A stretch of 64,000 bases of DNA from positions 727 through 64,726 of the forward strand of contig JAIRMQ010000029.1 in assembly GCA_031258575.1 (NCBI GenBank), written 5' to 3'. The DNA is from Holosporaceae bacterium. GTDB taxonomy: Bacteria > Pseudomonadota > Alphaproteobacteria > UBA3830. This document shows, piece by piece, positions 11,192-63,342 of the stretch. Position 1 is the first letter of the stretch; the number at the start of each line of letters is the position of its first letter. The notes under the pieces were generated by a model. It was not told the DNA's origin, searched no databases, and saw only the letters and a list, made by a program, of their open reading frames with translations. Position numbers and translations under genes: made by a program.

Positions 11192-12985
11192 ATGAAAAAA
11201 ATATTAGTAACCGCGCTATTAGGAGTAGAATTGCTTTCTGCGATGAATCAGTTTGAGCCATGGAGTACAGTATCTTGTCTTGATCCCAGAACTGTTTATC
11301 TTGACAAAAATGAAAAAACAGAAAAAATTATCCACGATACAAAAAAACAGATAGGGGAATATCTAAACGCTTTTTTTCTTAAAAAATTTAAAGAAAAAGT
11401 GAATCCTGAATTTGTTGAAGATCTCATGCAGGCTCTTGTCAAAGAGAAGATTTTATCCGTTTGGATTTTTTTTGAAAGAGTTTTTAGAATCCTTGTAAAT
11501 GGAAAAATAGGCAGCTTTTTAAAGTCCGAAAGGGATTGTCAAGTGTATATCGAAGAGATTCAAAAGCATGTCTTTCCTATGTTGGAACAATATAAACAAA
11601 ATTTAACTCCTCCTCTCAAATTTATTGAGAGCGATGATATAAGGGGATTCCCCGACCCCACTAAATTTTTCTTAATAGAATTTTCATCAAAATTACCTCC
11701 TGAAACTGAAGAGCTCTTAACGAAATTTTCATCAAAATACGGATTAACGTCTAATAATGTCAGAATAATAGATAGCGATAGTATTTTTAGTGGTTTTGAG
11801 AATCAACAGTTTCTGTCTATAGATAGAATAGCTTTTTATAAAGGACTGATAAAATCAACTCCGGAAACGAATTCACAAATACTCGATTTATGGACAAGTT
11901 TACTAGACGACGCTAATTTTATTCCTAAAAAAATAGAAATTTTATTTCAAATACCGTCTTATGATCAAATTACACTCCGTTACAATGGTGGCAATTTTAT
12001 TATGCCAACCGACGCTGAAATCGATGAATATGCAAAGCAGTATAAAGAACGAATAAAGCAAATGGTTAAGAACTCTCTTGCTTCGAATAATCATATACAG
12101 ACGCAAGTAATATTTCTTGCTGTCTATGAATACTTGCGCTCGAAAAACGTAAACGCTGATGGTAAAAGTCTAAAATTGATTTTTATGTCCGGTGAGGATG
12201 TTCCAGCAGAGAATTTTCCCCTATTTTTCCTCTATGCGAATCCAAATTTGACATGTGACGGACCAACAATTTCTCCTGTGAAAACAGCTCCCTCAATCCT
12301 AGGATATCCTCTCTATCCCGAGAAAATGACAGAGGCATTTAATCATGAACTAAGACACTCAATTCACAAAAATCTCGGATTGTTTTCAGATGAAAATTTG
12401 TGTGAGAAGTGTATGGAAGTTCCTTTTATAAAAGAACTTCTTTTTAACGATTTTCAAAAAATACAGGAACAAATTGAGAAAGATATTGGAAAAACATTGC
12501 CTAATACTTCTAAGGAAACCATTGATACTTTTTTAAATAATATAACAGGTTTTATGCCCCGAGAATTCTTTCAAAATTTTTCAAAAGAAAAAATCGCTGA
12601 AGATCCTATGGGATTTATCAAAGAATTGTCCATGCGTCTTGCCTATCATGTGGTCGATGGAATCACTGGGGGCGAAGAAGAAACACACAATATTATAGGA
12701 TTATTTTTCTCTAACGGTATTTTATATGTCGATAGAATAAACGACTATGTGGCGGCTCATGAACAAAAACAACCACTTCCTTGGACGCATCTCGGCTACA
12801 AGGAACTCATGAAAAGCATGCTGAATCTAGACGACCATCTTAAATATTGTACTATGGCGGACTATAGCAAAGTTTTTATTAGAAAATGTAGTAAGCGGAT
12901 GCTTTCAACCAATCCATTGAATCATCCAACTCCAGATGCTTTACAAATATTAGAAATTCTTCATGGGAAGCATCCGGATGATTAA
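11192..12985 (+). CDS. Orphan 597-aa protein with a weak N-terminal signal-like segment and an HExxH motif (candidate secreted zinc metalloprotease/effector)
   Basis: Long uninterrupted ORF behind a near-consensus promoter. The N-terminus is MKKILVTALLGVELLSA. HELRH lies at aa 385-389 (nt 12344-12358) and is followed by SIH. I recognise no other family motifs. Confidence 0.6.
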   Translation: MKKILVTALLGVELLSAMNQFEPWSTVSCLDPRTVYLDKNEKTEKIIHDTKKQIGEYLNAFFLKKFKEKVNPEFVEDLMQALVKEKILSVWIFFERVFRILVNGKIGSFLKSERDCQVYIEEIQKHVFPMLEQYKQNLTPPLKFIESDDIRGFPDPTKFFLIEFSSKLPPETEELLTKFSSKYGLTSNNVRIIDSDSIFSGFENQQFLSIDRIAFYKGLIKSTPETNSQILDLWTSLLDDANFIPKKIEILFQIPSYDQITLRYNGGNFIMPTDAEIDEYAKQYKERIKQMVKNSLASNNHIQTQVIFLAVYEYLRSKNVNADGKSLKLIFMSGEDVPAENFPLFFLYANPNLTCDGPTISPVKTAPSILGYPLYPEKMTEAFNHELRHSIHKNLGLFSDENLCEKCMEVPFIKELLFNDFQKIQEQIEKDIGKTLPNTSKETIDTFLNNITGFMPREFFQNFSKEKIAEDPMGFIKELSMRLAYHVVDGITGGEEETHNIIGLFFSNGILYVDRINDYVAAHEQKQPLPWTHLGYKELMKSMLNLDDHLKYCTMADYSKVFIRKCSKRMLSTNPLNHPTPDALQILEILHGKHPDD

Positions 12986-20163: not shown

Positions 20164-20361
20164 TTATCTATATGGCATATATTTTAGGACATTCTTGGCA
20201 TCGCAGGAACTCAATACCATAGTTCCACGTGATTGCCTTTTCATTTTCTGAGGACGCTTTCTCAAATTATGTCTCTTAAAAGCAGATTGTACTATTATCT
20301 TACCAGAGGCGGTAAAACTAAAACGCTTTTTCGCTGAACTTTTCGTTTTTAACTTGGGCAT
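20164..20361 (-). CDS. rpmI: 50S ribosomal protein L35
   Basis: [14 protein letters not shown]... The internal ATG at 20361 gives the canonical 65-aa protein, so the 116-aa track ORF is an artefactual 5' extension. Confidence 0.95.
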
Positions 20362-20787
20362 TTTATCCTCTTTATTAGTACAAAGCGCATCATAAAAAAT
20401 ACTCTTTATAAAGTCAATTGGTTGGAGTATATAAAGTGATATCAGTGGAACCACTTTGGATTGTGAACGAATTCTTAGTAGGAAGCATGCACCTATTAAA
20501 AATGGGCCTGGCATATAATATGTCTTTCTGCGCTTTCGTCTGCTTGGTAGTTATAACGTATATCTACTACAGTCCTCACAAAGAACAATATCGGATATCT
20601 TCCTGTTGATCTGAAGCTTACGCGAATAGCTAGTTTGCAGTAATTCAAAATATGTTGAACAGAATTTTGTGACCATTGTGCACAATAATTGATAGACGCA
20701 TTAAATATTGATCATGTTCAATGGAAAAAACATAGTTGTTAAAACTTTTCTTACGAATAAAGATTAGGATCGAATGGGGAGATGTAG

Positions 20788-22254
20788 ATGTCTGAAAATA
20801 TCGGAGAAATTTTATTCAAGAAAAATCTCTTAACGAAAGAGCAAATCGCTGTAATTACCAAGTCTCAAAAAAAATCAAATTTGCTCTTCGGACAACTTGC
20901 CGTCGTTCTTGGTTTTATGAGCGAAGATGATTTGATCAATGTTTTATCGGAACTTTATTCAATAGAAATAATAAATCTAGAATTTTTATATATAAATAAA
21001 GAGACTCTGATGTTAATTCCATATGAATTAGTTATATCGTGTCTTGCTATACCTTTTTTTGTCGATAGAAAAACCATAAAAATCGCTGTTGCGGATCCTG
21101 GAGACTTAAAGGCTATAGATTTAATTAATTCGCACATAAGAAACAAAAAAGTGCAATTTTTTATCGCCAGAAAAACTGAAATTCTCAGACTGTTAGAGAT
21201 AATAAAATGTGACGGAAAAAGTATTGATAAAGATCCTCTTCTTTTACTCAATAAAATCATTTTCGATGCAATGGAGTCTAGAGCAAGCGATATACATTTT
21301 GAACCTTTAGAAAATATGATACGCGTTCGCATAAGAGTGGATGGAATTCTTCGTATTTTGAAAAATATAGATTTTGATTCGTGGATGAGAATTAAATCCA
21401 AACTAAAACTTATTTCCAATCTTGATATAACAGAAAATCGAAGACCTCAAAGCGGACATACGCGTATTTTTTTGGCTGGGAAAAGCGTAGATTTAAGAAT
21501 ATCTACTCATCCTGGAATATATGGAGAAAATTTCGTCATTAGAGTTTTCGATCTTTCCAATGGAATTAGATCATTAGCGGACTTAAAGTTTCCGGAGGAG
21601 GATTTTTTATGGCTCAAACGTGTTATTGCTTTTCCCTACGGGATTTTACTAATCGTTGGCCCCACTGGGTCTGGAAAAACCACTACTCTATATTCCCTAT
21701 TGAGGGAAATTAATTCCCCTACAGTTAATATCATGACGTTGGAGGATCCTGTCGAATATCAAATTGAAGGAATAAAACAACTGGATTTACGTGAAGAAGG
21801 AATCCTATCTTTTTCAGATGGAGTAAGATCAATTTTGCGCCAAGATCCTGATGTAATGCTAATTGGGGAAATAAGAGACGAAGCAACAGCTTCATCTGCC
21901 GTGCGTGCTTCTCTTACTGGAAGATTAGTTTTAGCCACGTTACATGCATCTACACCAATCGAAGGAATCAGAAGGTTAGTCGATCTTGGTCTTAAATTAT
22001 CTGATTTCGTTCCATCTTTGATCGGAATTTTTTCTCAACGCTTAGTTAGATGCGTATCAAATATTGAGGGAAGATTCCCAATAACAGAATATATATTTTT
22101 TTCGGAAGAATTAAAGCAAAGTCTTTTAAGAAATAGCGATACGTCTATCTGCAAAGCGGATAAATCTTTTCATGATTCTGCCAAGTATGCACTGGATAAT
22201 AATCTAACAACTTTAGCTGAAATTACAAAGGTTTTGGGAAATGCCTCTATATAA
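20788..22254 (+). CDS. GspE/PilB-family secretion/pilus-assembly ATPase
   Basis: N-terminal T2SSE_N-like helices (IGEILFKKNLLTKEQIAVI, LFGQLAVVLGFMSEDDL). Walker A GPTGSGKTTT, Asp box MTLEDPVEYQIEG, Walker B/His box ILRQDPDVMLIGEIRD and LATLHA. There is no CxxC pair anywhere in the protein. Confidence 0.92.
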   Translation: MSENIGEILFKKNLLTKEQIAVITKSQKKSNLLFGQLAVVLGFMSEDDLINVLSELYSIEIINLEFLYINKETLMLIPYELVISCLAIPFFVDRKTIKIAVADPGDLKAIDLINSHIRNKKVQFFIARKTEILRLLEIIKCDGKSIDKDPLLLLNKIIFDAMESRASDIHFEPLENMIRVRIRVDGILRILKNIDFDSWMRIKSKLKLISNLDITENRRPQSGHTRIFLAGKSVDLRISTHPGIYGENFVIRVFDLSNGIRSLADLKFPEEDFLWLKRVIAFPYGILLIVGPTGSGKTTTLYSLLREINSPTVNIMTLEDPVEYQIEGIKQLDLREEGILSFSDGVRSILRQDPDVMLIGEIRDEATASSAVRASLTGRLVLATLHASTPIEGIRRLVDLGLKLSDFVPSLIGIFSQRLVRCVSNIEGRFPITEYIFFSEELKQSLLRNSDTSICKADKSFHDSAKYALDNNLTTLAEITKVLGNASI

Positions 22255-23413
22255 ATATCAAGTTCTAACTAAGAGCGGTGAGAAAAAACACGGTATTTTA
22301 TTGTCTGATGATTATAAACAAGCCTATGAAGTTCTGCATAGCAAGCAATATTTACCGATAAAAATAAAAAAAATCTATTGCACTTCTCGAAAAATTTCTC
22401 CAGAAAAATTATTGATGTTTTTCATGCATATCGAATTGCAGTTAAAATGCGGAGTAAGAATTAACGATGCAATAGAATCGTTCTCTGGATTTCAAGAGGA
22501 CCGAATTCTAAATGCTTCGCTTGTTGATATTGCAGATCTCCTTAAAAGAGGAGAAAGCATAAGCGATGCTTTTGAAAAATGTCACGCCATCTTTGACGAT
22601 GTTATTATTGGATTATTCCGATCTGCGGAAAATACCGGAGAAATTTTGGATGTTATTACGAACATATTAAAATTTTTAAAATTGCAAACAGAGTGGAGAG
22701 ATAATGTAAAAAGAGCGATCGCTTATCCGATATTTATAACGATTGTTGCGATATTAGTTCTAATTATTAGTGTAGGGGTCCTAGGACCTCAGGTTATTTC
22801 CCTTATTCAAATTTGTAACAATGGCGAAATTCCAATTCTCACGCAATTTACTATAAACATACTGCCCCAAATTTTTGAAATAGCTTGTGCTTTTTTCCCT
22901 GCGTTATTATTAATCCTAGTAATCGTTTTATTAAGTCGAAAAAATAGAAGTCTTTTTCTCCTCAAAATTCCAGTTATAAAAAAATTAATAACTCAAATTG
23001 TTTTGTGGAATTTTTATAAGATTATGCACATAGCTTTATCCGCGAAGTTAGATTTTATACAAGCGCTAACTTTGGCGATAGACGCTGTAAAATTTGATTC
23101 TATAAAAAAAGAACTGGAAAATATTCGCAATGACATAATTGATGGATATGGAATTTCAGAATCATTTTCTGAAAAAGAATTGATCCCCGCTGAAGTTCTT
23201 ATGGTTATTCGAATAGGAGAAGAAGGTAACGATCTTAAAGAGAGTTTTTATTATATCAGTGATGATCAATATAAAAGAATATTATTAGATATTGAAGTAT
23301 TAGGACGCAGGCTAAGTATAGGTTTAACAATCTTTACAGGTCTGATATTCATTTTTATTCTTTGCACTCTTTTTTATCCAATTTATAGCTATATCGAGAT
23401 TGCGAGTATGTGA
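22241..23413 (+). CDS. GspF/PilC-family inner-membrane platform protein
   Basis: 390 aa with two GspF-type repeats separated by TM helices (SDAFEKCHAIFDDVIIGLFRSAENTGEI and ISESFSEKELIPAEVLMVIRIGEEGNDL). Overlaps the ATPase gene by 14 nt. Confidence 0.88.
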   Translation: MPLYKYQVLTKSGEKKHGILLSDDYKQAYEVLHSKQYLPIKIKKIYCTSRKISPEKLLMFFMHIELQLKCGVRINDAIESFSGFQEDRILNASLVDIADLLKRGESISDAFEKCHAIFDDVIIGLFRSAENTGEILDVITNILKFLKLQTEWRDNVKRAIAYPIFITIVAILVLIISVGVLGPQVISLIQICNNGEIPILTQFTINILPQIFEIACAFFPALLLILVIVLLSRKNRSLFLLKIPVIKKLITQIVLWNFYKIMHIALSAKLDFIQALTLAIDAVKFDSIKKELENIRNDIIDGYGISESFSEKELIPAEVLMVIRIGEEGNDLKESFYYISDDQYKRILLDIEVLGRRLSIGLTIFTGLIFIFILCTLFYPIYSYIEIASM

Positions 23414-24522
23414 TGTATATTTTTCGAGGAGAAAATAAAGAAAGAATATTCGATAAAATACTCGATAAAAACCCCGCTGGAATTATCTTAGATAAAAGCA
23501 GCATATCTTTCTCTTCAGAACGATTGCAGAAATGTTACGTATGGGATGCCTACAGCGCGTTAAATTGCAAGAAAAAAATATTATCTTCCACAGAAAAAGC
23601 TTTTCTGATTTTCCCAGATAGAATTTTCAAAAAATCTGATTTCTACATTCAAAAAATTTCTTTTCCCGAGGAATTTTTATCTGGGGAAACAGATATATTT
23701 TTAACGGAAAAGGTCATTGCAGAATTTTGTAAGAGTCTTGACGTTATCGATGAAAAAACTCAATGGTTGTATGCAGCGAATCATAAATCTAGTGGATTAA
23801 GAATAATTGTAGGATTTGGTGGTAGCATAATTTTAACAAGGTTTTTACCTCAAAACTCGGAAATAGAAAAAGAGATTTCTAAGACAATAATTTATCTACG
23901 AAGATTCGATATAAATGGGAAAATTAAAATATTTACTCCGTTTTCTAAACTTCAATTAGCTGCACTGACGAACAGTGAGATAATTCATATTGAAAAATAC
24001 GAGGATGCGGAAGAAGCTATAGCAGATTTTCTATCAAAGAATCGAAAAATAAAACCAATTTATGGAAAACGGTTTTCTTTTGATGATCCACGTATACTAA
24101 CTTGGTCCGGAATAATTTCCGTTGTTTTTGCGGGCGGAATTTTCTATTTGAAAGAATCTATAAAAGAGAACGAGCATATTATTACTGAGCTTAGAAAGGA
24201 TGTAACTATTTCGGCAAAGCACATTAAAATAATAGCAAACTCTGAAAATTTTTCTTTCTTAAAACAATTCATAAATGAATTTAAAAGCTCTTATAATCCA
24301 GTAAAAATGCTACAAAAAATCTCACAACCATGTCGCGAGTATAACCTAAATGTAGAAGAAATTTCATTTAGTAAAGGAGCGAAAATCAAAGCTTTTCTCT
24401 CTAAAAAACAATTAAATGAACTAAAGGAAAATAAAGGAATAAAAATAGAAGAGATCTCAGAAGATAAATACGAAGAGATTGGAAAAAATGAAAAAGTGGG
24501 AGTATTAATTTGTATAGATTGA
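23410..24522 (+). CDS. Hypothetical bitopic membrane protein, GspL- or PilM/PilN-fusion-like topology
   Basis: 370 aa. About 228 aa are cytoplasmic, preceded by a basic stretch (KNRKIKPIYGKR). A single TM helix spans aa ~229-246 (ILTWSGIISVVFAGGIFY), followed by a periplasmic part of ~124 aa. The start overlaps the platform gene stop (GTGATG). Confidence 0.6.
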   Translation: MMYIFRGENKERIFDKILDKNPAGIILDKSSISFSSERLQKCYVWDAYSALNCKKKILSSTEKAFLIFPDRIFKKSDFYIQKISFPEEFLSGETDIFLTEKVIAEFCKSLDVIDEKTQWLYAANHKSSGLRIIVGFGGSIILTRFLPQNSEIEKEISKTIIYLRRFDINGKIKIFTPFSKLQLAALTNSEIIHIEKYEDAEEAIADFLSKNRKIKPIYGKRFSFDDPRILTWSGIISVVFAGGIFYLKESIKENEHIITELRKDVTISAKHIKIIANSENFSFLKQFINEFKSSYNPVKMLQKISQPCREYNLNVEEISFSKGAKIKAFLSKKQLNELKENKGIKIEEISEDKYEEIGKNEKVGVLICID

Positions 24523-25202
24523 GATTAATGCTTGTTCCATTATTGGGCTTTTTCCTGCTAAAGGACGTGATAGTCTTATGTGATCTACAGGAACTTAGAA
24601 AACGCTTATCAGATTCCCAAAAAGCAATAGAGATTTTTTTAAAAAAAATCGAAACGCTCCCGTATTTAAAATCAACAAAAAAAATTTTTAATACTAAGAT
24701 TGATCCAAAACAAGTTATAGAAAAAATCTCCGGTCGCTTGAAAGTTCATAAAACCTTAGTAAAGCAAGGCTCTTCAATCGAAGAAATTAAAATACTTTCA
24801 AAGCAGGAAGACGTGGTATATAGATTTATAGAAGATTTACTTTTTGAGTTGCCTGGCATAATACAATTTGAATCCATAAAAATCTCGAAAAATAATAAAG
24901 AATTATCCGCTACGATACAATTAAAAGCGTTTCAATTATTGAATGTCCGTGATTTTGTTAACATAGATTCGTCGGATGAAAAATCGGATACGTCATCCAT
25001 AAAATTATTTTTTTCAGACGAAAAAAGAAAACATAATTTATTGTGTACTTTAGAAAAAGCAAAAGCTTACATAAATAATTCATGGTTTCAACTAGGTGAT
25101 GCAATAGAAGACCGCAGATTGATTGGAATATACCAAAATTACATTGAATTACAACGCAGCAATGGCGATAAAACTATAATAAAACTCGGAGAAATGTGGT
25201 AA
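24510..25202 (+). CDS. Hypothetical N-terminally anchored protein, GspM/PilO-like with a PilP/GspC-like tail
   Basis: 230 aa with a TM helix at aa ~4-24, then a coiled-coil-like segment (LQELRKRLSDSQKAIEIF). The C-terminus is beta-strand-like (NSWFQLGDAIEDRRLIGIYQNYIELQRSNGDKTIIKLGE). Overlaps the previous ORF by 13 nt. The start is uncertain (TTG 24510 or ATG 24528). Confidence 0.55.
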   Translation: MYRLRLMLVPLLGFFLLKDVIVLCDLQELRKRLSDSQKAIEIFLKKIETLPYLKSTKKIFNTKIDPKQVIEKISGRLKVHKTLVKQGSSIEEIKILSKQEDVVYRFIEDLLFELPGIIQFESIKISKNNKELSATIQLKAFQLLNVRDFVNIDSSDEKSDTSSIKLFFSDEKRKHNLLCTLEKAKAYINNSWFQLGDAIEDRRLIGIYQNYIELQRSNGDKTIIKLGEMW

Positions 25203-26132: not shown

Positions 26133-28289
26133 CTATGCTACTCGCCTTTCTTTTTTTAAGGTTATTAGGACTTCTGATATGTAAAACTTAGGTAAAATAC
26201 GAATGCCTGATTTTTCTGCGGAATTCCGTACTTTTTCTTTATTGTAAAAACCAGTCACAAGAATCGATTGTTTCTGCATGTTATTCTTTTCTATAAAAGT
26301 GATTCCATTTACATCATTACTTTTTAATTCATAATCTACTAATAAAAGCATCCGCTTTTTCTCCTGTACTGTTTCTATAAAATCCATGGCCTCCTGGTAC
26401 TTCGAAAAGCATTTAATACTAATATCACCACTGTAATCTTTTAAGCGGCGCTCCCAAATATAATGTATCAATGGTTCATCATCAACTATCACCACAATAT
26501 TTCCCTTATGCAAGATGATCTTACTGGCAAACCAGTGAGGTTTTTCGGAAATCGGAATAGTAATGATAAAATCTGTGCCTACCCCCATTTCGGACAGCAC
26601 TTCTAAATCTCCATTCATTTTTTCTAACGTTGACCTAAGCTGAGTCAGACCAACACCATATCCACCGATTTTATCGCTTGCGACTCGTGCCTTATTCATA
26701 ATTTTTTCTATGGTTTCTTTGGGCATACCTTTTCCATTGTCTCTTACGAGAATTTTTATATTACTTACATCCTTTGAAATAAGAATATCAACGCTTCCGC
26801 CCGATTCTTTTCTAAGCGCTTCCAGTGCATTGTCTATTACATTTGAAATCATTCGTTTGAACGCCATTTTATTTCCTTTCACGAAAATATATTCTTCGTT
26901 GTTAGGACAGGAATAGTTGATTTTTAAGTTCCACATTTCATATTCCTTTATCTTTTGGCTTATGATATCCAACAGCGTTGGATGAACTTCAATATATTCT
27001 TTATACGAATTAGCTTCCTCGGTATTGATTGCTTGTAAACCATTTTTACAATCTCCATTTGAATATTTCTTATGTTTATCCAAAAGATCATTAACTATAA
27101 TATTCACGCTTTCTATTAAACTTTCTAAAAATTTTACATCTTTCTCCTTCAATTCCTTGCAAATTTTAACGAAAGTAGACAAAGCCGCAATAGGAGAACG
27201 GATATCATGCACTACTTGCTCACTGATACTTCTTAATTTTTCTTGTACTTTATTTCGAAGCTCAAGTTTTTCATTCTTTTTTCGTTCTGTAATATTAACT
27301 GCAAGACCAATTACTCCTTCTACCTTTCCCTCTATTATTAACGGAGATTTAACTACAAGATAGCTAATTCCAAGATATTCTTCTTCTGTGATTATTTCTT
27401 TCCTTGTTTTCAAAATATCAGTTGTTGTCTTCCAAGCCTGGGCATTTAGCTTTTTGGCATTATTACCTCCAATAACTTGATCCAAAGCGTAATTTTTGTA
27501 GATATGGTTGCCATATTTATCTATGACGAAAAAATTAACATTGGATACAGTTTCTTTCATAAAACGAGAAACTTCCGCATTCAATATTTCTGCATTCAGA
27601 TCGCTGTGTTTACAACTCTTCTGAGATTGCTTAGACGTTTTATAACGAAGATGTTTAATGCTTAGTTTATAACGTTTTGCTACGTCCTCCATTGATCGTG
27701 CTAAATTCATCGGGTATACCAAAACCGTAGGATTTTGAAAGTTTACACATATATACGCGAGCTCTTCCAGCAAAAAATCTATACTACAAGAGAGCTCGTT
27801 ATTGCCTTTATATGCAGCTATCGAAGCATCTGATATGACAAGATCTCTAAAACTTAGGATAAGCCCTTCACCATTCTGATCTCCCGCATAGTCTTTTAGT
27901 ATTTGTTTATGCCATTTTTTAAATTCGTTCGAACTAATACCCTCTATCCACGGCTTTACTACAGTATCAACTTGTAATTTGTTAATGGATTCTTTATTTT
28001 TAGCGAGCCATAAAGTTTCTATAGAAGGATCGGAATAAGTATTAAAATCCGGAATAACGTGCCTGTACAAATACGAAGTATCGACGATATTAATTTTTTT
28101 TAGCTTTTTCTTTGTCTCTTCGAGATTTAGTGAATTAACCAAATCTTCGAATCCTTCTCCACTTTGACTACTGCAACCATACGATATAACTGCATTTAAA
28201 GTTATACTTCTCTCTGCGGCTGCATTAAAGAATTCAAGGGCTTCTTCACTCCATTTCACATGTCTATTTTCTTCCATATCCACCTCCAT
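26133..28289 (-). CDS. Soluble hybrid sensor histidine kinase/response regulator with an unassigned N-terminal domain
   Basis: No TM helix. aa ~1-245 are unassigned and aa ~245-335 are PAS-like. H-box VVHDIRSPIAAL, N-box NVIDNALEA, G1 DNGKGMP, G2 GGYGVGL. The C-terminal receiver domain has VIVDDEP, LLLVDYEL and ILPKF. Confidence 0.9.
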   Translation of the reverse strand: MEVDMEENRHVKWSEEALEFFNAAAERSITLNAVISYGCSSQSGEGFEDLVNSLNLEETKKKLKKINIVDTSYLYRHVIPDFNTYSDPSIETLWLAKNKESINKLQVDTVVKPWIEGISSNEFKKWHKQILKDYAGDQNGEGLILSFRDLVISDASIAAYKGNNELSCSIDFLLEELAYICVNFQNPTVLVYPMNLARSMEDVAKRYKLSIKHLRYKTSKQSQKSCKHSDLNAEILNAEVSRFMKETVSNVNFFVIDKYGNHIYKNYALDQVIGGNNAKKLNAQAWKTTTDILKTRKEIITEEEYLGISYLVVKSPLIIEGKVEGVIGLAVNITERKKNEKLELRNKVQEKLRSISEQVVHDIRSPIAALSTFVKICKELKEKDVKFLESLIESVNIIVNDLLDKHKKYSNGDCKNGLQAINTEEANSYKEYIEVHPTLLDIISQKIKEYEMWNLKINYSCPNNEEYIFVKGNKMAFKRMISNVIDNALEALRKESGGSVDILISKDVSNIKILVRDNGKGMPKETIEKIMNKARVASDKIGGYGVGLTQLRSTLEKMNGDLEVLSEMGVGTDFIITIPISEKPHWFASKIILHKGNIVVIVDDEPLIHYIWERRLKDYSGDISIKCFSKYQEAMDFIETVQEKKRMLLLVDYELKSNDVNGITFIEKNNMQKQSILVTGFYNKEKVRNSAEKSGIRILPKFYISEVLITLKKERRVA

Positions 28290-32060: not shown

Positions 32061-33146
32061 GTGTTATCGAAAGAAGAGAAATTAGCACGGTTAAAATTAG
32101 CTCGTACGGATTCTATAGGCGCATCTAAATTTTGGGAACTAATCGGTGCCTATGGAAACGGAGAAAATGTTTTAAAAAATCTTCCACGAATTTTGAAAAA
32201 CACAAGCATTTGTAGTAACGATAAAATTTCTCAAGAAATTTTTAATATGAAATCTATGGGTGCTCGCTTTGTTTTCTGGGAAGATGAGTTATATCCTCCA
32301 CTATTAAGAAATATTCCAGATCCTCCTCCGATCTTATCGTTTCTAGGAAATAAAGACAGAGTTCTTTCATTTTATAAGAAGAACCTAATTTCGGTAGTGG
32401 GTGCTAGAAATGCCTCCATACATGCTGATAAATTATGCCGTACTATCTGTCAAGATCTAAGCGCTAACGATGTTATAATCGTATCGGGATTAGCTCGAGG
32501 AATTGACAGCAGCGCGCATCTGGGAAGTTTGGAAAATGGGACTATAGGAATAAGCGCCTGTGGAATAAATATTGTGTATCCTCAGGAAAATAAAAAGCTT
32601 TATGAAAGAATCATAGGAAATAGCGGAATTTTCTCAGAAATGCCTTTTGACACTCCCCCGCAACCACAATTATTTCCTAGAAGAAATCGAATTATCGCAG
32701 GAATGTCTTACGGTACAGCTGTTATAGAAGCTGCTGAACAATCTGGTTCTTTGATAACAGCTAAAATGGCGCTTGATTATAATAGAGACGTTTTTGCCGT
32801 TCCCGGATTTCCTTTAGATCCTAGAAGTGTAGGCTGTAACAAATTGTTAAAAGAAGGAGCTATTCTTATACAAAATGCGCAGGACATTTTGGAGCACCTA
32901 GAAAATAAAAAAATTATTCCAATGCTAGAGAATAATGTTCCCGCTAGAATTTCCGAACAGGATTTAGAAAAAACTGGGGAAAAAATACTAAGTTCTTTAA
33001 ATTCTGCTCCGATTACTATTGACGAATTGATTTCATGCATTAAAGTATCTCCTCGAGAAGTGTTGACTGTGCTTTTAGAACTCGAACTGACAGGAAAGGT
33101 GATAAGATTACACGGCCAGAGAGTTTGCCTAGCGCTTAACGGTTAG
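32061..33146 (+). CDS. dprA: DNA-processing protein DprA
   Basis: SGLARGIDSSAH, SGSLITAKMALDYNRDVFAVPG, and a C-terminal winged-helix-like extension. Sits in the conserved plsY-dprA-topA order. Confidence 0.92.
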   Translation: MLSKEEKLARLKLARTDSIGASKFWELIGAYGNGENVLKNLPRILKNTSICSNDKISQEIFNMKSMGARFVFWEDELYPPLLRNIPDPPPILSFLGNKDRVLSFYKKNLISVVGARNASIHADKLCRTICQDLSANDVIIVSGLARGIDSSAHLGSLENGTIGISACGINIVYPQENKKLYERIIGNSGIFSEMPFDTPPQPQLFPRRNRIIAGMSYGTAVIEAAEQSGSLITAKMALDYNRDVFAVPGFPLDPRSVGCNKLLKEGAILIQNAQDILEHLENKKIIPMLENNVPARISEQDLEKTGEKILSSLNSAPITIDELISCIKVSPREVLTVLLELELTGKVIRLHGQRVCLALNG

Positions 33147-33181
33147 AACTTTGAATTTATTATAGTGGAGATTTTATATAA

Positions 33182-35482
33182 ATGCGGCTCGTAGTAGTTG
33201 AATCCCCCGCGAAAGCTAAAACAATAAACAAGTATCTTGGAAAAGAGTATAAGGTAGTTGCAAGCTACGGTCATGTTCGCAATCTACTTTCAAAAGATGG
33301 TAGTGTTCGGCCTGAAGATGGGTTTTCTATGATTTGGGACATCGATACGTCCGGGAAAAAACGATTAAATGAAATTGCGAGCCAACTAAAAGGTTGCGAC
33401 GAATTACTACTTGCAACCGATCCTGATCGCGAAGGAGAGGCTATTTCATGGCATATAAAAGAGTTGCTTCAAGAAGGAAAAAAGCTTAAAGTTCCTTTCA
33501 AACGTGTCGTTTTTCATGAAATAACTAGAAGTGCTATAGAAGAAGCTCTTGCTAATCCTAGAGGTATAAATGCCTCGCTGGTAGATGCATATCTTACGCG
33601 ATGTGCTCTGGATTATCTTATTGGATTTACTCTTTCCCCAATCCTCTGGAGAAAATTACCTGGAAGCAAGTCTGCCGGACGAGTTCAATCGGTCGCTTTA
33701 AGAATGATCTCTGATCGAGAAACAGAAATAGAGGCCTTTGAAAAAAAGGAATTTTGGTCCATTGAAGGAAAGTTTATTGCGAAAGATAAAAAGATATTTG
33801 GAGCTCGCCTCACGCATTACAAAGGAGAAAAATTAGAAAAATTTTCTATAAATAACTCGAAATATGCTAATTCTATAAAAGAAGCTCTTATTTCTCATGA
33901 ATTTTCCGCTACCTCTGTTGAAAAGAAAGTAGCAAAGCGCAATCCAGCGCCCGCTTTCATTACGTCTACTTTACAACAAGAAGCATCGCGAAAATTAGGA
34001 TTTGGTGCGAAAAAGACTATGCAATTAGCTCAAAACCTTTATGAAGGTATTGATATTAATGGAGAACGAGTCGCTCTTATTACTTACATGCGTACCGATA
34101 GTGTAAATTTATCGAAAGAAGCGATAGAACGAATCCGTGATTTAATTTTTAAAAAGTACGGAGATAATTTCGCACCGGAAAAAGCGCGCATTTATCATAC
34201 AAAAGTAAAAAATGCCCAGGAAGCTCACGAGGCTATCCGTCCAATTGATGCTTTTGTTACTCCAGATAGTTTAAAAGATAATGTCCCTGGAGATCTTTAT
34301 AAATTATATGATTTAATTTGGAAAAGAGCTGTCGCTTCCCAAATGTCATCGGCTGAATTTGAACAGGTGCAAGTAGATATTTCGGATAAGGAGAAAAATA
34401 TCTTCCGAGCTAACGGAAACACAATGAAATTCGAAGGATTCATAAAAGTTTACGTTGAAGGTAAGGACGATGAAGAGGAAGAAGACGGCGCATTACCGGT
34501 TATTACGGTTAGAGATCAACTTCCGACTGAGAGTTTAGAAGCCTTGCAGCATTTTACCACGCCTCCTCCACGTTTTTCAGAGGCAAGTCTTGTAAAGAAA
34601 ATGGAAGAGCTGGGAATTGGAAGGCCTTCCACATATGCAAATATTTTGCAAGTACTTAGAGATCGCGGATATGCAAAATTAGAGAAGAAATTCTTTACCC
34701 CAGAAATTCGGGGACGCTTGGTAACGTCTTTTCTCACAAGTTTCTTTAGCAAATACCTAGAATATGGATTTACCGCGAATTTGGAGCAATCTTTGGACGA
34801 TATTTCCAATGGAAATAAGACGAAACTAGAAATTCTAACAAATTTCTGGAAAGACTTCTGTCAGAACGTTGATACGACAAAAGGCATTAAAATTTCAGAT
34901 GTTATTAATAAATTAAATGAATCATTAGAGGCTTTTTTATTTCGTACGGAGAAGGGAGATATTTCACGCAGTTGTCCTGAGTGTAAAACTGGAGAATTGA
35001 GCCTTAAAATTGGAAAATTCGGCTCATTTGTTGGATGCTCAAAATATCCAGAATGTAAATACGTACGTAAACTAGATTCGTCTCCGATGACAAATGAGGA
35101 TAAAACGATTATGCAATCTTCAGAATATCCTAAATTTTTAGGAACAGATCCTGCTGACAATACTGAAATTAGTCTTCGGAAAGGTCCATATGGGCTGTAC
35201 ATACAAAAAGATTTTAAAAAATCACAGGAAAAGCCTCAACGTGCTGCTATTCCAAGTTTTTTGAATCCGGTGGAAGTCGATTTAAAAATGGCGCTTGCAC
35301 TTCTGCAATTTCCCAAAAATCTTGGTAATTTCGAGGGAGAAGAAGTTAAAATTGGTCTAGGAAAGTATGGTCCTTATGCGCTTCACAAAGGAAAATACGC
35401 ATCCCTTCCCCAAACTCCAGATATTTTCACAATGAATTTAGACGACGCTATCGCGGCTATATTGAAAAAACATAGCCGTTAA
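33182..35482 (+). CDS. topA: DNA topoisomerase I
   Basis: Toprim LVVVESPAKAKTI and DPDREGEAISWH, catalytic Tyr region ITYMRTDS, and a C-terminal Zn ribbon CPECKTG...CSKYPECKY. Confidence 0.97.
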   Translation: MRLVVVESPAKAKTINKYLGKEYKVVASYGHVRNLLSKDGSVRPEDGFSMIWDIDTSGKKRLNEIASQLKGCDELLLATDPDREGEAISWHIKELLQEGKKLKVPFKRVVFHEITRSAIEEALANPRGINASLVDAYLTRCALDYLIGFTLSPILWRKLPGSKSAGRVQSVALRMISDRETEIEAFEKKEFWSIEGKFIAKDKKIFGARLTHYKGEKLEKFSINNSKYANSIKEALISHEFSATSVEKKVAKRNPAPAFITSTLQQEASRKLGFGAKKTMQLAQNLYEGIDINGERVALITYMRTDSVNLSKEAIERIRDLIFKKYGDNFAPEKARIYHTKVKNAQEAHEAIRPIDAFVTPDSLKDNVPGDLYKLYDLIWKRAVASQMSSAEFEQVQVDISDKEKNIFRANGNTMKFEGFIKVYVEGKDDEEEEDGALPVITVRDQLPTESLEALQHFTTPPPRFSEASLVKKMEELGIGRPSTYANILQVLRDRGYAKLEKKFFTPEIRGRLVTSFLTSFFSKYLEYGFTANLEQSLDDISNGNKTKLEILTNFWKDFCQNVDTTKGIKISDVINKLNESLEAFLFRTEKGDISRSCPECKTGELSLKIGKFGSFVGCSKYPECKYVRKLDSSPMTNEDKTIMQSSEYPKFLGTDPADNTEISLRKGPYGLYIQKDFKKSQEKPQRAAIPSFLNPVEVDLKMALALLQFPKNLGNFEGEEVKIGLGKYGPYALHKGKYASLPQTPDIFTMNLDDAIAAILKKHSR

Positions 35483-37070: not shown

Positions 37071-38291
37071 ATGTACGCGCTTTATGATGCCTCTTCATAT
37101 TTTTTAAGACCATCTAGAAAATTTGCTCAAATATTGAAGTCATATTTGAGATCTAATCCAAACGCAATGAATTCGTGTTTCGGGCGTGTTACTGAAGGCT
37201 TTGCCGACATGTACGAACGTACCACAAGATATGTGCAGAAGCCTGAGTTTAATATAGACGAAGTGAAAGTCAACGGAGAAGAAATTAAGGTTTATCAAAC
37301 TACTGTGATGAAAAAGCCTTTCGGAAATCTTGTTCGCTTTAAAAAAGAAATTAAAAAATATGAACCAAAAGTTCTAATAATAGCTCCAATTTCTGGGCAT
37401 TTCGCAACTTTATTGAGAGATACGGTCAGAAGAATGGTTGAAAAGCATGAGGTTTATATAACAGACTGGAAAAGTGTTAGAGAAGTCCCATTATCCGCTG
37501 GAAATTTTGGACTAGACGAATATCTTACGTATCTAATTGATTTCATGCATTATCTTGGAGAGAACGTACACGTTATGGCAGTATGCCAACCTGCAGTTCA
37601 AATAATGGCTCTTGCTGCGATTATGGATGAGGCTAATGATCCTTGTATGCCTACGACTATTATTCCCATGGGAGGTCCAATTGATCCAAGAGTGAAAAAA
37701 ACTCAGGTTAACGAATTGGCAGAGGGTCATTCGCTTTCTTGGTTTGAAAGAAATTTTCTGACATACGTTCCCAAAGGACACATAGGCGAAGGACGTCGCG
37801 TTTATCCTGGATTTATTCAATTAACAGCCTTTATAAGCATGAATCCAGATGCTCATTACAAAGCACATATTAAATATCTGGAAGACAAAACTCTTAACAA
37901 TAAACCGGGAATGGAAAAACATACGACTTTTTATGACGAGTATTTGTCCGTTTTGGACATGGATGATATTTATTATTTGGAAACTATGGAAAAAATATTT
38001 CAAACCTACGAACTACCAAGAAACGCTATGAAATACAAAGGTCATACTATAGATCTTGGTAGTATTAGGCGCTGTGCTTTGCTTACTCTAGAGGGAGAAA
38101 AGGACGATATTTCTGCTCCGGGTCAGACATTTGCAGCCCATGCTTTATGCAGAAATCTTCCAGAAAAGATGCACGATCATTATTTGCAGCCTGGAGTTGG
38201 ACACTACGGTGTTTTTTCCGGTAGTAAATGGAGAACGTACATCGCGCCTAAGGTAGAGGAATTTATTAAAAGATTTGATAAAGGAAAATAA
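37071..38291 (+). CDS. phaZ: Intracellular polyhydroxyalkanoate depolymerase
   Basis: Collinear with remembered alphaproteobacterial PhaZ sequences: KPEF..., APISGHFATLLRDTVRRM, VCQPAVQ, RRVYPGFIQLTAFISMNPD, FYDEYLSVLDMDDIYYLET, GHYGVFSGSKWR. Confidence 0.88.
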   Translation: MYALYDASSYFLRPSRKFAQILKSYLRSNPNAMNSCFGRVTEGFADMYERTTRYVQKPEFNIDEVKVNGEEIKVYQTTVMKKPFGNLVRFKKEIKKYEPKVLIIAPISGHFATLLRDTVRRMVEKHEVYITDWKSVREVPLSAGNFGLDEYLTYLIDFMHYLGENVHVMAVCQPAVQIMALAAIMDEANDPCMPTTIIPMGGPIDPRVKKTQVNELAEGHSLSWFERNFLTYVPKGHIGEGRRVYPGFIQLTAFISMNPDAHYKAHIKYLEDKTLNNKPGMEKHTTFYDEYLSVLDMDDIYYLETMEKIFQTYELPRNAMKYKGHTIDLGSIRRCALLTLEGEKDDISAPGQTFAAHALCRNLPEKMHDHYLQPGVGHYGVFSGSKWRTYIAPKVEEFIKRFDKGK

Positions 38292-52087: not shown

Positions 52088-53074
52088 CTATCTCACAGGC
52101 TGTTTTTTCTGCGAAGTTGTGCTTCCCTGAGTTTGGTTCTTTTGTCCTCGTGTTTTTTTTCCCCTAGAATTGGTCCCAGGCCTCTTTTGCGCAGTCGGGT
52201 TTACCTTTACCAATGGTGTTGGTTTTTTTCCAGATAGACTTCTCTCTTGTGGAATGGGAGAAGGGTTATTTTCACTAGTAGTAGTACTTTTACTTAGATC
52301 GGAAGTGGTACTTTTATTTGGATCGGAAGTGGTACTTCCACTTAGATCGGAAGGGGTACTTTCACTTGAATCGGAAGAGGTACTTTTACTTGGATCGGAA
52401 GTGGTACTTTCACTTGAATCGGAAGGGGTACTTTTACTTGGATCGGAAGGGGTATCTTCAGGGGGGTCTTCTTCAAAGCTAAGAGGATTTGAACTAAAAA
52501 TAGTGGCTTCATGCGATATCAAATTGTCCAAGTCACCATTTATTCCATTCAAACTATTCCGGCACCCTTGGAGCAAAGCTTTGATGCCAGAAATAAGCTG
52601 AGCACTAATCCTAACCGAAGCTTTAGGATCATCACCACCAAGTTTTGAAATTACCTCATTTAGATTTTCCACCAAACTTTGCACCCTTGTAGCTTGATTT
52701 GTTCTGGCAACTTTCACTTCTCTTATAAGTTGATTTTTGTAACTGTTGAGATGTTCATTAATCTCTTCTTGGATCTGTTGCTTTTCAGCTTCATGCTTGG
52801 TTTTAAGCTCCGCATGTGCTGTTTTTAGACTTTCCATCTCACCAGAGTGCTTTGTGTCGCGCTCATCTAGGATGGTTTTTAGCGTGCCAATGTTCTCTGT
52901 TAGGATAGGTGCTTGCTCTGCAATCTTTGATCCTACTTGTTGTAGATTTGCGACAACTGATTCTATCGTTGGTTGAGTTAAACTAGTACCCGTTTCAATT
53001 TCCAGGCTCCAAACCTTACTGCCAAGCATCGCAAGCATTGCGATTGCAGAAATTTTTACTACTCTTTTTTCCAT
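52088..53074 (-). CDS. Secreted/surface-type protein with coiled-coil N-half, Ser/Thr-rich 8-aa tandem repeats and a basic C-tail
   Basis: ATG 53074 follows GAAAGGAG. Signal-like N-terminus MEKRVVKISAIAMLAMLGSKVWS. Seven T-x-S-D-x-x-x-S repeats, then the tail KRPGTNSRGKKTRGQKNQ. Confidence 0.7.
   Translation of the reverse strand: MEKRVVKISAIAMLAMLGSKVWSLEIETGTSLTQPTIESVVANLQQVGSKIAEQAPILTENIGTLKTILDERDTKHSGEMESLKTAHAELKTKHEAEKQQIQEEINEHLNSYKNQLIREVKVARTNQATRVQSLVENLNEVISKLGGDDPKASVRISAQLISGIKALLQGCRNSLNGINGDLDNLISHEATIFSSNPLSFEEDPPEDTPSDPSKSTPSDSSESTTSDPSKSTSSDSSESTPSDLSGSTTSDPNKSTTSDLSKSTTTSENNPSPIPQERSLSGKKPTPLVKVNPTAQKRPGTNSRGKKTRGQKNQTQGSTTSQKKQPVR
52286..52453 (-). repeat. Seven tandem, in-frame 24-bp repeats (consensus about GGATCGGAAGTGGTACTTTTACTT on + strand)
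   Basis: Direct reading of the sequence. The encoded units are TPSDPSKS/TPSDSSES/TTSDPSKS/TSSDSSES/TPSDLSGS/TTSDPNKS/TTSDLSKS. Confidence 0.9.
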
Positions 53075-53148
53075 TATAGTACTCCTTTCTATTTTCAAAT
53101 ATGAAAGAATATTGACATAATAACGTAAAGAAAAAGTAAATTTTTCTA

Positions 53149-58167: not shown

Positions 58168-58244
58168 TGGTGCGATCGGCGGGATTTGAACCTGCGACAC
58201 CAGGATTAGGAATCCTGTGCTCTATCCAACTGAGCTACGACCGC
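58168..58244 (-). tRNA. tRNA-Arg (anticodon CCT), CCA encoded
   Basis: The minus strand reads GCGGTCG-TA-GCTC-AGTTGGATA-GAGC-A-CAGGA-TTCCTAA-TCCTG-GTGTC-GCAGG-TTCAAAT-CCCGC-CGATCGC-ACCA. This is a full cloverleaf with one A-C mismatch in the T stem. Confidence 0.92.
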
Positions 58245-63077: not shown

Positions 63078-63127
63078 TGGTGCCGAAAAGAGGAATCGAA
63101 CCTCCGACCTACTGATTACGAATCAGT
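63078..63127 (-). pseudogene. 3' 50-nt fragment of tRNA-Thr(CGT): anticodon arm to CCA, with no D arm or 5' acceptor strand (att-type remnant)
   Basis: The minus strand reads ACTGA-TTCGTAA-TCAGT-AGGTC-GGAGG-TTCGATT-CCTCT-TTTCGGC-ACCA. The complementary 5' acceptor strand GCCGAAA would appear as TTTCGGC on the + strand, and that string is absent from 63128-63342. Confidence 0.8.
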
Positions 63128-63342
63128 TTACATTGGCTTTCCACAAAACAAACAACCTCCACGAATCCGCTCATATTTCAGCATTTTTGAGCATGCCTCC
63201 ACTCTATCAACCAACAATCTTGCATCAAAAACAAAACATAAAATGGGGACAGAATGGGGACAACTTCTTGCTTTTTTCTGCACCATACCCTATATAATAC
63301 TCAACAGAAAAAATATCAAATTGGATGAAGGGCACAATAATC

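Follow-up and report, generated by a model that had tools for sequence, protein, structure and literature searches.

A four-gene cassette conserved in Holosporaceae as the probable inner-membrane platform operon of a split type II secretion-like machine

In a 64,000-nucleotide stretch of DNA from a Holosporaceae bacterium (contig JAIRMQ010000029.1, positions 727 to 64,726 of the forward strand; hereafter the window), a cassette of four genes encodes an assembly ATPase, a platform protein and two partners that are orphans in sequence searches. The cassette recurs in every related locus that we compared. We consider it probable, with some reserve, that the cassette is the inner-membrane platform operon of a machine that resembles a secretion system of type II (T2SS) and belongs to the type IV filament superfamily, with the other parts of the machine encoded elsewhere. 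The best reading is a split T2SS-like system in which the operon supplies the E-F-L-M/C platform. The four open reading frames (ORFs) are as follows (HR, homology region):

20788-22254, + strand: ORF1, 488 aa, ATG start; PilB/GspE-family assembly ATPase (E)
22241-23413, + strand: ORF2, 390 aa; PilC/GspF platform protein (F)
23410-24522, + strand: ORF3, 370 aa, GTG start; first sequence-orphan partner (X)
24510-25202, + strand: ORF4, 230 aa, TTG start; second sequence-orphan partner (Y), bitopic, proposed GspM/PilO-like plus GspC-HR/PilP-like fusion

The ORFs are tightly packed on the same strand between 20788 and 25202, with junction overlaps of 14, 4 and 13 nt. A first-pass annotation of the window had given these coordinates and overlaps and proposed a single operon, and we likewise regard the four genes as one operon-like unit; close packing or overlap is seen again in the gene calls of the relatives. 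Database calls differ slightly at two starts: the NCBI call for ORF3 begins with ATG at 23413 (369 aa), and the JGI call for ORF4 is a 224-aa form.

Conservation was analyzed in 17 related loci (L001-L003 and L006-L019), which together with the window make 18. The E-F-X-Y cassette was contiguous, intact and in the same order in 17 of 17 related loci and in the window. The loci and the ORF3 and ORF4 family members that carried an organism name were all from Holosporaceae, mostly metagenome-assembled genomes (MAGs), and one hypothetical protein from a Holosporaceae MAG had 100% identity with ORF3. The ORF3 family formed 64 clusters at 50% identity in a set of 1.84 billion representative proteins, and a word-indexed search recovered 13 members of the ORF4 family. 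Even the most distant ORF3 relative (E = 6.5e-10) kept the cassette, and the fourth gene of that locus matched the ORF4 profile at 2.4e-9. Identity to the window was highest for E (54-73%), followed by F and then by X and Y (20-43%); such a gradient, E > F > X/Y, is usual for T2SS and type IV pilus (T4P) genes. The flanks of the related loci varied and included dnaK-dnaJ, recG-lgt-ybjN, asd, tim44-spoU and others. The intact cassette, the differing flanks and the X/Y identity of down to about 20% indicate that the four genes are maintained as a selected functional unit. The description of the module as orphan and unusual in the first-pass annotation thus did not hold, since the cassette is found in all 17 related loci and a reduced T2SS/T4P has already been published for Holosporales.

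The first gene product, ORF1, matched the Pfam family T2SSE at 3.3e-88, together with MshEN. In NCBIfam it scored 338 bits with PilB and 330 bits with GspE, both far below the equivalog cut-offs. Its best matches among PDB sequences were PilB proteins (271-260 bits), followed by PilF (258 bits), GspE/EpsE (230 bits) and PilT (107 bits). The features of ORF1 and its start (c-di-GMP, cyclic di-GMP) are:

20770..20787, + strand: ribosome-binding region GGGGAG ahead of the ORF1 ATG, from reading the sequence
20800..20952, + strand: MshEN-type N-terminal motif pair (c-di-GMP-binding type), degenerate here; aa 5-55
20956..21198, + strand: GspE-N1/MshEN domain (Pfam PF05157, 1.3e-11); aa 57-137
21244..22095, + strand: ATPase core; aa 153-436
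22048..22089, + strand: site of the missing zinc subdomain, between 'QRLVR' and 'GRFPITE'; gap relative to E. coli GspE

The core motifs of ORF1, namely Walker A (GPTGSGKT, aa 291-298), the Asp box (TLEDPVEY), Walker B (DPDVMLIGEIRD) and the His box (TLHA), were intact in 18 of the 18 ATPases (the window and 17 orthologues). Alignment to E. coli GspE showed that about 38 residues containing the CxxC...CxxC tetracysteine zinc site are deleted in ORF1, and no CxxC motif was present in the ATPases of any of the 18 loci. At the N terminus, NCBIfam model NF053729 scored 38.7 bits against a cut-off of 38. We searched there for the MshEN tandem motif RLGxxLLxxGLLxxxxLxxxLxxQ. The window has 'ENIGEILFKKNLL', and the relatives have 'RNIGDTLLNKGLL' or 'QRIGEILQEQGLL' (the latter, for example, in L017); the leading Arg and the central Gly of the motif are replaced in the window and kept in several relatives. 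This distribution suggests that c-di-GMP control may have been lost in a lineage-specific manner. Such control appears doubtful in the window genome, because the motif is barely above the cut-off and the leading Arg and central Gly are gone. In T2SSs, the GspE-N1 domain docks onto GspL.

ORF2 was matched in two stretches by Pfam T2SSF (4e-32) and contains three hydrophobic transmembrane (TM) regions (156-192, 207-235 and 357-387). In NCBIfam it scored 153 bits with HofC, 141 bits with GspF and 98 bits with PilC, all far below the cut-offs. Scores so far under the equivalog cut-offs mark both ORF1 and ORF2 as divergent proteins. Their earlier identification as a GspE/PilB-family ATPase and a GspF/PilC platform protein was confirmed, for ORF1 by the Pfam, NCBIfam and PDB matches and the intact motifs, and for ORF2 by the two T2SSF domains and the three TM regions.

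The third protein, ORF3, is divided by one TM helix:

23410..24093, + strand: cytoplasmic domain, predicted actin-like/RNase-H-like (PilM/GspL-cyto type); aa 1-228
24094..24150, + strand: single TM helix from a hydropathy scan; aa 229-247
24151..24519, + strand: coiled coil, then predicted (alpha-beta-beta)x2 periplasmic domain (PilN/GspL-C type); aa 248-370

The TM helix separates a cytoplasmic part of about 228 aa from a periplasmic part of about 120 aa, which are the proportions of GspL. The AlphaFold2 (AF2) model of ORF3, computed from an alignment of 3 sequences, was poor, with a predicted local distance difference test score (pLDDT) of 45.6. When this model was compared with known structures by Foldseek, an actin-like-fold protein ranked first (1.1e-4), PilM proteins of three organisms were within the top seven (M. 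xanthus 3.8e-4, Thermus 2.8e-3 and P. aeruginosa 3-5e-3), and RNase-H-fold proteins came next. The (alpha-beta-beta)x2 arrangement of the periplasmic part was read from the order of secondary-structure elements in this low-confidence model. Neither ORF3 alone, nor 40 family members, nor their consensus had a significant match in Pfam, NCBIfam, PADLOC, PHROGs or the PDB sequences, the last of which were also searched with profiles, and the profile hidden Markov models (HMMs) for T2SSL/GspL_C, PilM and PilN were matched by none of them. The alignment of the periplasmic part of ORF3 with the middle region of ORF4 by hhalign was full-length and non-significant (P 0.066). The first-pass annotation had likened ORF3 to GspL or to a fused PilM-PilN. 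The topology, the element order of the model and the Foldseek matches fit this proposal and provide weak-to-moderate support for a predicted GspL-like, that is, PilM+PilN-like, protein.

The fourth protein, ORF4, is anchored by its N terminus:

24519..24587, + strand: signal-anchor TM helix running into a long helix (aa 3-48); aa 4-26
24705..24932, + strand: (alpha-beta-beta)x2 ferredoxin-like domain; aa 66-141
25035..25184, + strand: small beta-domain of six strands, where the ORF4 family is most conserved; aa 176-225

The AF2 model of ORF4, based on a 13-sequence alignment, had a pLDDT of 72.7, with 83-91 in the beta-domain. Its order is a TM/coiled-coil helix, the (alpha-beta-beta)x2 domain, a disordered linker and the beta-domain. 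No Foldseek match to the PDB was found at E<=1e-3. The best natural matches were the periplasmic domain of XcpY/GspL (target-normalized TM-score [TMt] 0.59), PilO and the C-terminal domains of PulL/PulM; the natural matches had TMt values of 0.57-0.67 and E-values of 0.02-0.17 and were interleaved with designed ferredoxin-like proteins. The beta-domain carries the pattern HKLFCTI..AYID..WFQIGD.I....L..V.QN.IE.Q...G....IKLG, which by eye resembles the layout of GspC-HR/PilP. In a domain-restricted hhalign comparison with a GspC-HR profile built for this analysis, the beta-domain aligned in register over 51 columns (P 0.041), and the control pair PilP/GspC-HR gave P 0.019 under the same conditions. 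The same five sets of families and sequences that were searched with ORF3 yielded no significant match for ORF4, its 13 family members or their consensus, and the GspM/PilO and GspC-HR/PilP family HMMs did not match ORF4. The proposal that ORF4 combines a GspM/PilO-like part with a GspC/PilP-like tail agrees with the topology, the model and the Foldseek matches, and we regard such a fusion of a GspM/PilO-like with a GspC-HR/PilP-like domain as a candidate assignment with weak-to-moderate support.

The two orphan proteins were also analyzed by direct profile comparison. The family profiles of ORF3 and ORF4 aligned with nothing when compared by hhalign with single E. coli GspL, GspM, GspC and HofM/N/O/P. 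Comparator profiles of 2-8 sequences, taken from T2SS and type IVa pilus (T4aP) loci from metagenomes, likewise gave non-significant results with ORF3 and ORF4, and the known pairs GspL-N/PilM, GspL-C/PilN, GspM/PilO and PilN/PilO also failed (P 0.27-0.63). Since the known control pairs fail too, this profile test is powerless and those negatives for ORF3 and ORF4 are weightless; among the hhalign tests, the HR-domain comparison alone had a control that worked. E. coli HofM did not retrieve PilM structures by phmmer, a failure that illustrates how fast scaffold proteins appear to diverge in sequence. A tblastn search of plasmids for GspL/PilM diversity returned almost solely enterobacterial copies. 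That ORF3 and ORF4 match no nameable family, as first stated from the sequence, was borne out in all of the databases listed above.

We then searched for the partner genes that a type IV filament machine would use. A six-frame scan for class III signal sequences found no credible ORF in the 64-kb window; as controls, GspG/H/I/J of E. coli were recovered by the scan, as were three pilins of a T4aP locus with 38% GC. The latter control (L070, 6674-10900) is a canonical pilMNOPQ locus from a metagenome with the three pilins upstream. With the full E. coli Gsp/Hof sets as queries, phmmer retrieved homologues of E and F alone, both from the window and from L001-L015, and Pfam scans of the remaining large or unassigned window ORFs detected no secretin or A24 peptidase. 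The signal scan, phmmer and Pfam thus agree with the first-pass statement that the 64-kb window contains no pilin, A24 peptidase or secretin. In the 17 related loci there was no pilin or peptidase within 10 kb of the cassette, and no secretin was found in the window or in the related loci.

Published inventories place these other parts at separate loci in Holosporales, so the system is probably split. Holosporales "typically have type II ... secretion systems" (Castelli et al. 2025), and most of them were described with "incomplete Type IV pili" (Dittmer et al. 2023). A "reduced T2SS/T4P" was reported in Cytomitobacter and Nesciobacter (George et al., 10.1101/719211); Table S3 of that study lists gspF, gspD, pilB and pilQ for three complete 0.6-Mb Holosporaceae genomes and additionally pilM for one of them, C. 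indipagum; all three thus have secretin genes entered. In the tables of clusters of orthologous groups (COGs) of Castelli et al. (2025), Holospora undulata has GspE/PilB, PulF, a PulG-type pseudopilin and PilV; Caedimonas, Bealeia, Finniella and Hepatobacter all have E, F, PulG and prepilin peptidase COGs; and the secretin COG is entered for Caedimonas and Bealeia. PulL, PulM, PulC and PilM are not among the entries of these COG tables that were examined, which fits a situation in which divergence has put the proteins with these roles beyond recognition. The published Holosporales T2SS, or reduced T2SS/T4P, is very probably the same system as the cassette: it occurs in the same family and order and has the same recognized set of genes, with pilB/gspE, gspF and a secretin elsewhere. 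The inventories differ from our analysis in that they list recognizable genes only and, as far as they were examined, give no account of the four-gene cassette and its two orphan partners. The first-pass annotation had noted that a canonical locus elsewhere in the genome would refute its reading and make this an ordinary split system, and this is probably the case. In E- and F-bearing Holosporales genomes, a secretin, PulG/PilV and, for several genera, a peptidase have been published; for the window genome, we infer that pseudopilins, secretin and peptidase are present elsewhere.

As symbionts of protists, the Holosporaceae live obligately inside cells, partly in nuclei, and must deliver proteins into their hosts. 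For the cassette we infer the following arrangement, in which the folds of ORF3 and ORF4, all of the protein contacts and the secretion function are predictions. ORF1 would act as a hexameric assembly ATPase whose N1 domain docks on the actin-like cytoplasmic domain of ORF3, and its hexamers would drive ORF2, the polytopic platform. ORF3 would take the role of GspL, as the equivalent of a fused PilM-PilN, and its periplasmic ferredoxin-like domain would pair with that of ORF4. ORF4 would act as GspM/PilO, with its C-terminal GspC-HR/PilP-like beta-domain contacting the N0 domain of the secretin. The pseudopilins, the secretin and, where present, the prepilin peptidase would be encoded at other loci, as in other Holosporales. 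A short pseudopilus could then work as a piston, forcing folded proteins from the periplasm through the secretin and into the host cell.

Compared with the known T2SSs (E. coli Gsp, Klebsiella Pul and Vibrio Eps), the cassette has in common the ATPase and the platform protein, together with the co-transcription and translational coupling of E and F. ORF3 would share with GspL the domains of about 230 aa in the cytoplasm and about 120 aa in the periplasm. ORF4 would resemble GspM in its small size, its signal anchor and its ferredoxin-like periplasmic domain, and its beta-domain has the GspC-HR sequence pattern. The cassette differs from these systems in that no homology of ORF3 or ORF4 to GspL, GspM or GspC can be detected in sequence, and M-like and C-HR-like parts appear to be joined in one 230-aa protein that has no PDZ or coiled-coil C terminus. 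Also unlike the known T2SSs, the pseudopilins, secretin and peptidase lie outside the operon, and ORF1 has an MshEN-type N terminus and lacks the tetracysteine zinc subdomain.

The T4aP systems of M. xanthus, P. aeruginosa and Thermus show another set of similarities. The core of ORF1 is nearest to PilB, the low-confidence ORF3 model matches PilM structures, the C-terminal part of ORF3 and the middle of ORF4 have the predicted PilN/PilO architecture (TM helix, coiled coil and alpha-beta-beta x2), and the tail of ORF4 would be PilP-like. In contrast to T4aP, two proteins would do the work of the four PilMNOP proteins, the cytoplasmic domain falls well short of PilM in length, and ORF4 is not a lipoprotein as PilP is. 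The gene order is E-F-MN-OP instead of a separate pilMNOPQ operon, and PilT, pilins and a secretin are not found nearby. With the MSHA system, in which MshE is the ATPase and MshI, MshJ and MshK are PilMN-, PilO- and PilP-like, the cassette shares the MshEN N-terminal domain on the ATPase, and MshI already provides an example of a fused PilM-PilN-like protein. It differs from MSHA in its gene order, in having no msh pilin operon, in a c-di-GMP motif that is without the key Arg in the window, and in the absence of sequence similarity between ORF3 or ORF4 and the Msh proteins of NCBIfam. The cassette, read as a platform of the T2SS-like machine, is a lineage-specific compact variant with two fusions, sequence-orphan scaffolds and a zinc-less ATPase, and not a categorically new machine.

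Several points weigh against the assignment to a T2SS-like platform. The tetracysteine zinc subdomain, which ORF1 lacks, is needed by GspE/PilB-type ATPases. Ferredoxin-like folds are common, and the Foldseek E-values of ORF4 are just 0.02-0.17; for ORF3, the pLDDT of 45.6 is accompanied by Foldseek TM-scores of just 0.2-0.3. At the sequence level, neither protein is similar to any L, M, C, PilM, PilN, PilO or PilP family. No pilin or peptidase is listed for the three very small genomes (10.1101/719211), and the prepilin peptidase COG is absent for Holospora undulata in the COG tables (Castelli et al. 2025). These gaps in the inventories also bear on a filament-free derivative in the most reduced Holosporaceae, in which E-F-X-Y and a secretin would function without canonical pilins or peptidase, whether as a gated exporter or with non-canonical or unrecognized subunits that it may have. 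The lack of a pilin or peptidase in the window and near the cassette in the 17 loci, the clade-wide loss of the zinc subdomain and the strong remodelling of X and Y are all consistent with this derivative. No type IV filament machine studied so far is known to work without pilins and a peptidase; moreover, pilins are short and easily missed by annotation. The short gene lists of the three 0.6-Mb genomes, confined in Table S3 to gspF, gspD, pilB, pilQ and, in one, pilM (10.1101/719211), and the missing peptidase COG of Holospora undulata are thus set against the PulG/PilV COGs of the same species and the peptidase of other Holosporales (Castelli et al. 2025), and we regard the filament-free derivative as unlikely.

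Two other functions and a loss of function were also weighed. A surface T4a pilus for adhesion to or entry into the host, in which ORF3 and ORF4 would form a condensed PilMNOP alignment complex, would account for the proximity of ORF1 to PilB, for an MshEN N terminus typical of MshE and some PilB proteins, and for the finding that the ORF3 model retrieved PilM and not the cytoplasmic domain of GspL. It would also accord with the "incomplete type IV pili" of Holosporales (Dittmer et al. 2023). We consider a T4a pilus quite improbable, since neither PilT/PilU nor a major pilin nor a pilMNOPQ-type locus turned up, the part of ORF3 in the cytoplasm (about 228 aa) has the size of GspL and not that of PilM (about 350 aa), and the later inventories name the system a T2SS (Castelli et al. 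2025). The cassette could instead be a minimal competence pseudopilus, its E-F-L-M-like core bringing DNA to ComEA/ComEC for the strand to be processed by DprA, as the first-pass annotation had considered from the dprA gene at 32061. The ATPase core is indeed slightly nearer to T4aP PilB than to GspE, ORF2 scores best with HofC, and the distance from the cassette to dprA is 7 kb in the window, where dprA is downstream, and 3-7 kb in the most distant relative, where it is upstream. However, dprA is near-universal in bacteria, competent or not, and in both places it is paired with topA; this housekeeping pair is merely nearby, and the link is weak. Furthermore, comEA, comEC and pilin genes were not seen in the window, and the complete-genome inventories of Holosporales file the genes as T2SS (Castelli et al. 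2025), so that we give competence a low probability. The reading as a decaying, non-functional remnant of a lost T2SS/T4P is very improbable. In its favor are the reduced genome, the local absence of partner genes, the degenerate MshEN motif of the window genome and the lost zinc subdomain. Against it, none of the four ORFs is broken in 18 of 18 loci, deeply divergent as these are, the genes still overlap at their junctions, and the ATPase is 54-73% identical with every catalytic motif conserved. Intact ORFs, conserved motifs and kept junctions are unlike pseudogenization, and of the decay that the first-pass annotation had envisaged, no sign was seen in any of the 18 ATPases.

If the cassette is the platform of a split T2SS-like system, the L-, M- and C-type scaffold that is missing plausibly comes from the two conserved orphans beside E and F, and the "incomplete" system of Holosporaceae could be complete and functional. 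It would then offer a compact four-gene platform for asking which T2SS parts are indispensable. An annotation can be offered for at least 64 clusters of ORF3-type hypothetical proteins and for their ORF4-type partner. The gain is incremental, in that a known system is refined and no new one is revealed.

The surroundings of the cassette were also analyzed. It is flanked by lepB-dksA-rplT-rpmI on one side and by fabD and a hybrid histidine kinase on the other, and its G+C content (0.31-0.35) is similar to that across the window (0.32-0.40). The flanks rpmI-rplT and fabD, the surroundings-like composition and the position of dprA were all as originally described. About 425 bp of non-coding DNA separates the divergent rpmI from ORF1; in these 425 bp a promoter scan showed no enrichment over shuffled sequences, and no Rfam family was detected. 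In one related locus (L019), rpmI-rplT-dksA and fabD are near the cassette, and the position in the window therefore looks ancestral. The neighbors in L019 and the dprA-topA pair near the cassette in L015, the most distant relative, look like remnants of ancestral synteny and not like a functional link. A horizontal import was rejected because the G+C content is like that of the surroundings, the cassette is vertically conserved, and remnants of the window neighborhood are kept in L019; the earlier view that the cassette is not a recent import was therefore sustained. An origin from defence systems or phage was also rejected.

Some observations were made on the neighboring genes themselves. 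The 116-aa ORF at 20164-20514 corresponds to rpmI, spuriously extended at its 5' end, and its true start is probably 'MPKLKTKSS' near 20361. The hybrid histidine kinase/response regulator (718 aa, window 26133-28289, - strand) is two genes from the cassette, and its first 350 residues or so have no Pfam domain match. The dprA-topA pair occupies 32061-35482 in the window and 563-4105 in L015.

Elsewhere in the window, no Pfam family matches the 597-aa ORF at 11192-12985 (+ strand), whose N terminus, MKKILVTALLGVELLSA, is signal-peptide-like; the symbiont may secrete this protein or use it as an effector. The 336-aa ORF at 52088-53098 (- strand) has a hydrophobic N terminus followed by a long coiled coil, with Pfam matches at noise level only. 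The window contains a single full tRNA, tRNA-Arg(CCT), at 58168-58244. An Rfam tRNA match of 57 nt (36.7 bits) at 63081-63137 (- strand), which was not called by ARAGORN, may represent a fragmentary tRNA or a tRNA-like element that is truncated. Finally, the region 37071-38291 (+ strand) encodes a polyhydroxybutyrate (PHB)-depolymerase C-terminal domain (2.6e-82) in the otherwise reduced symbiont genome.

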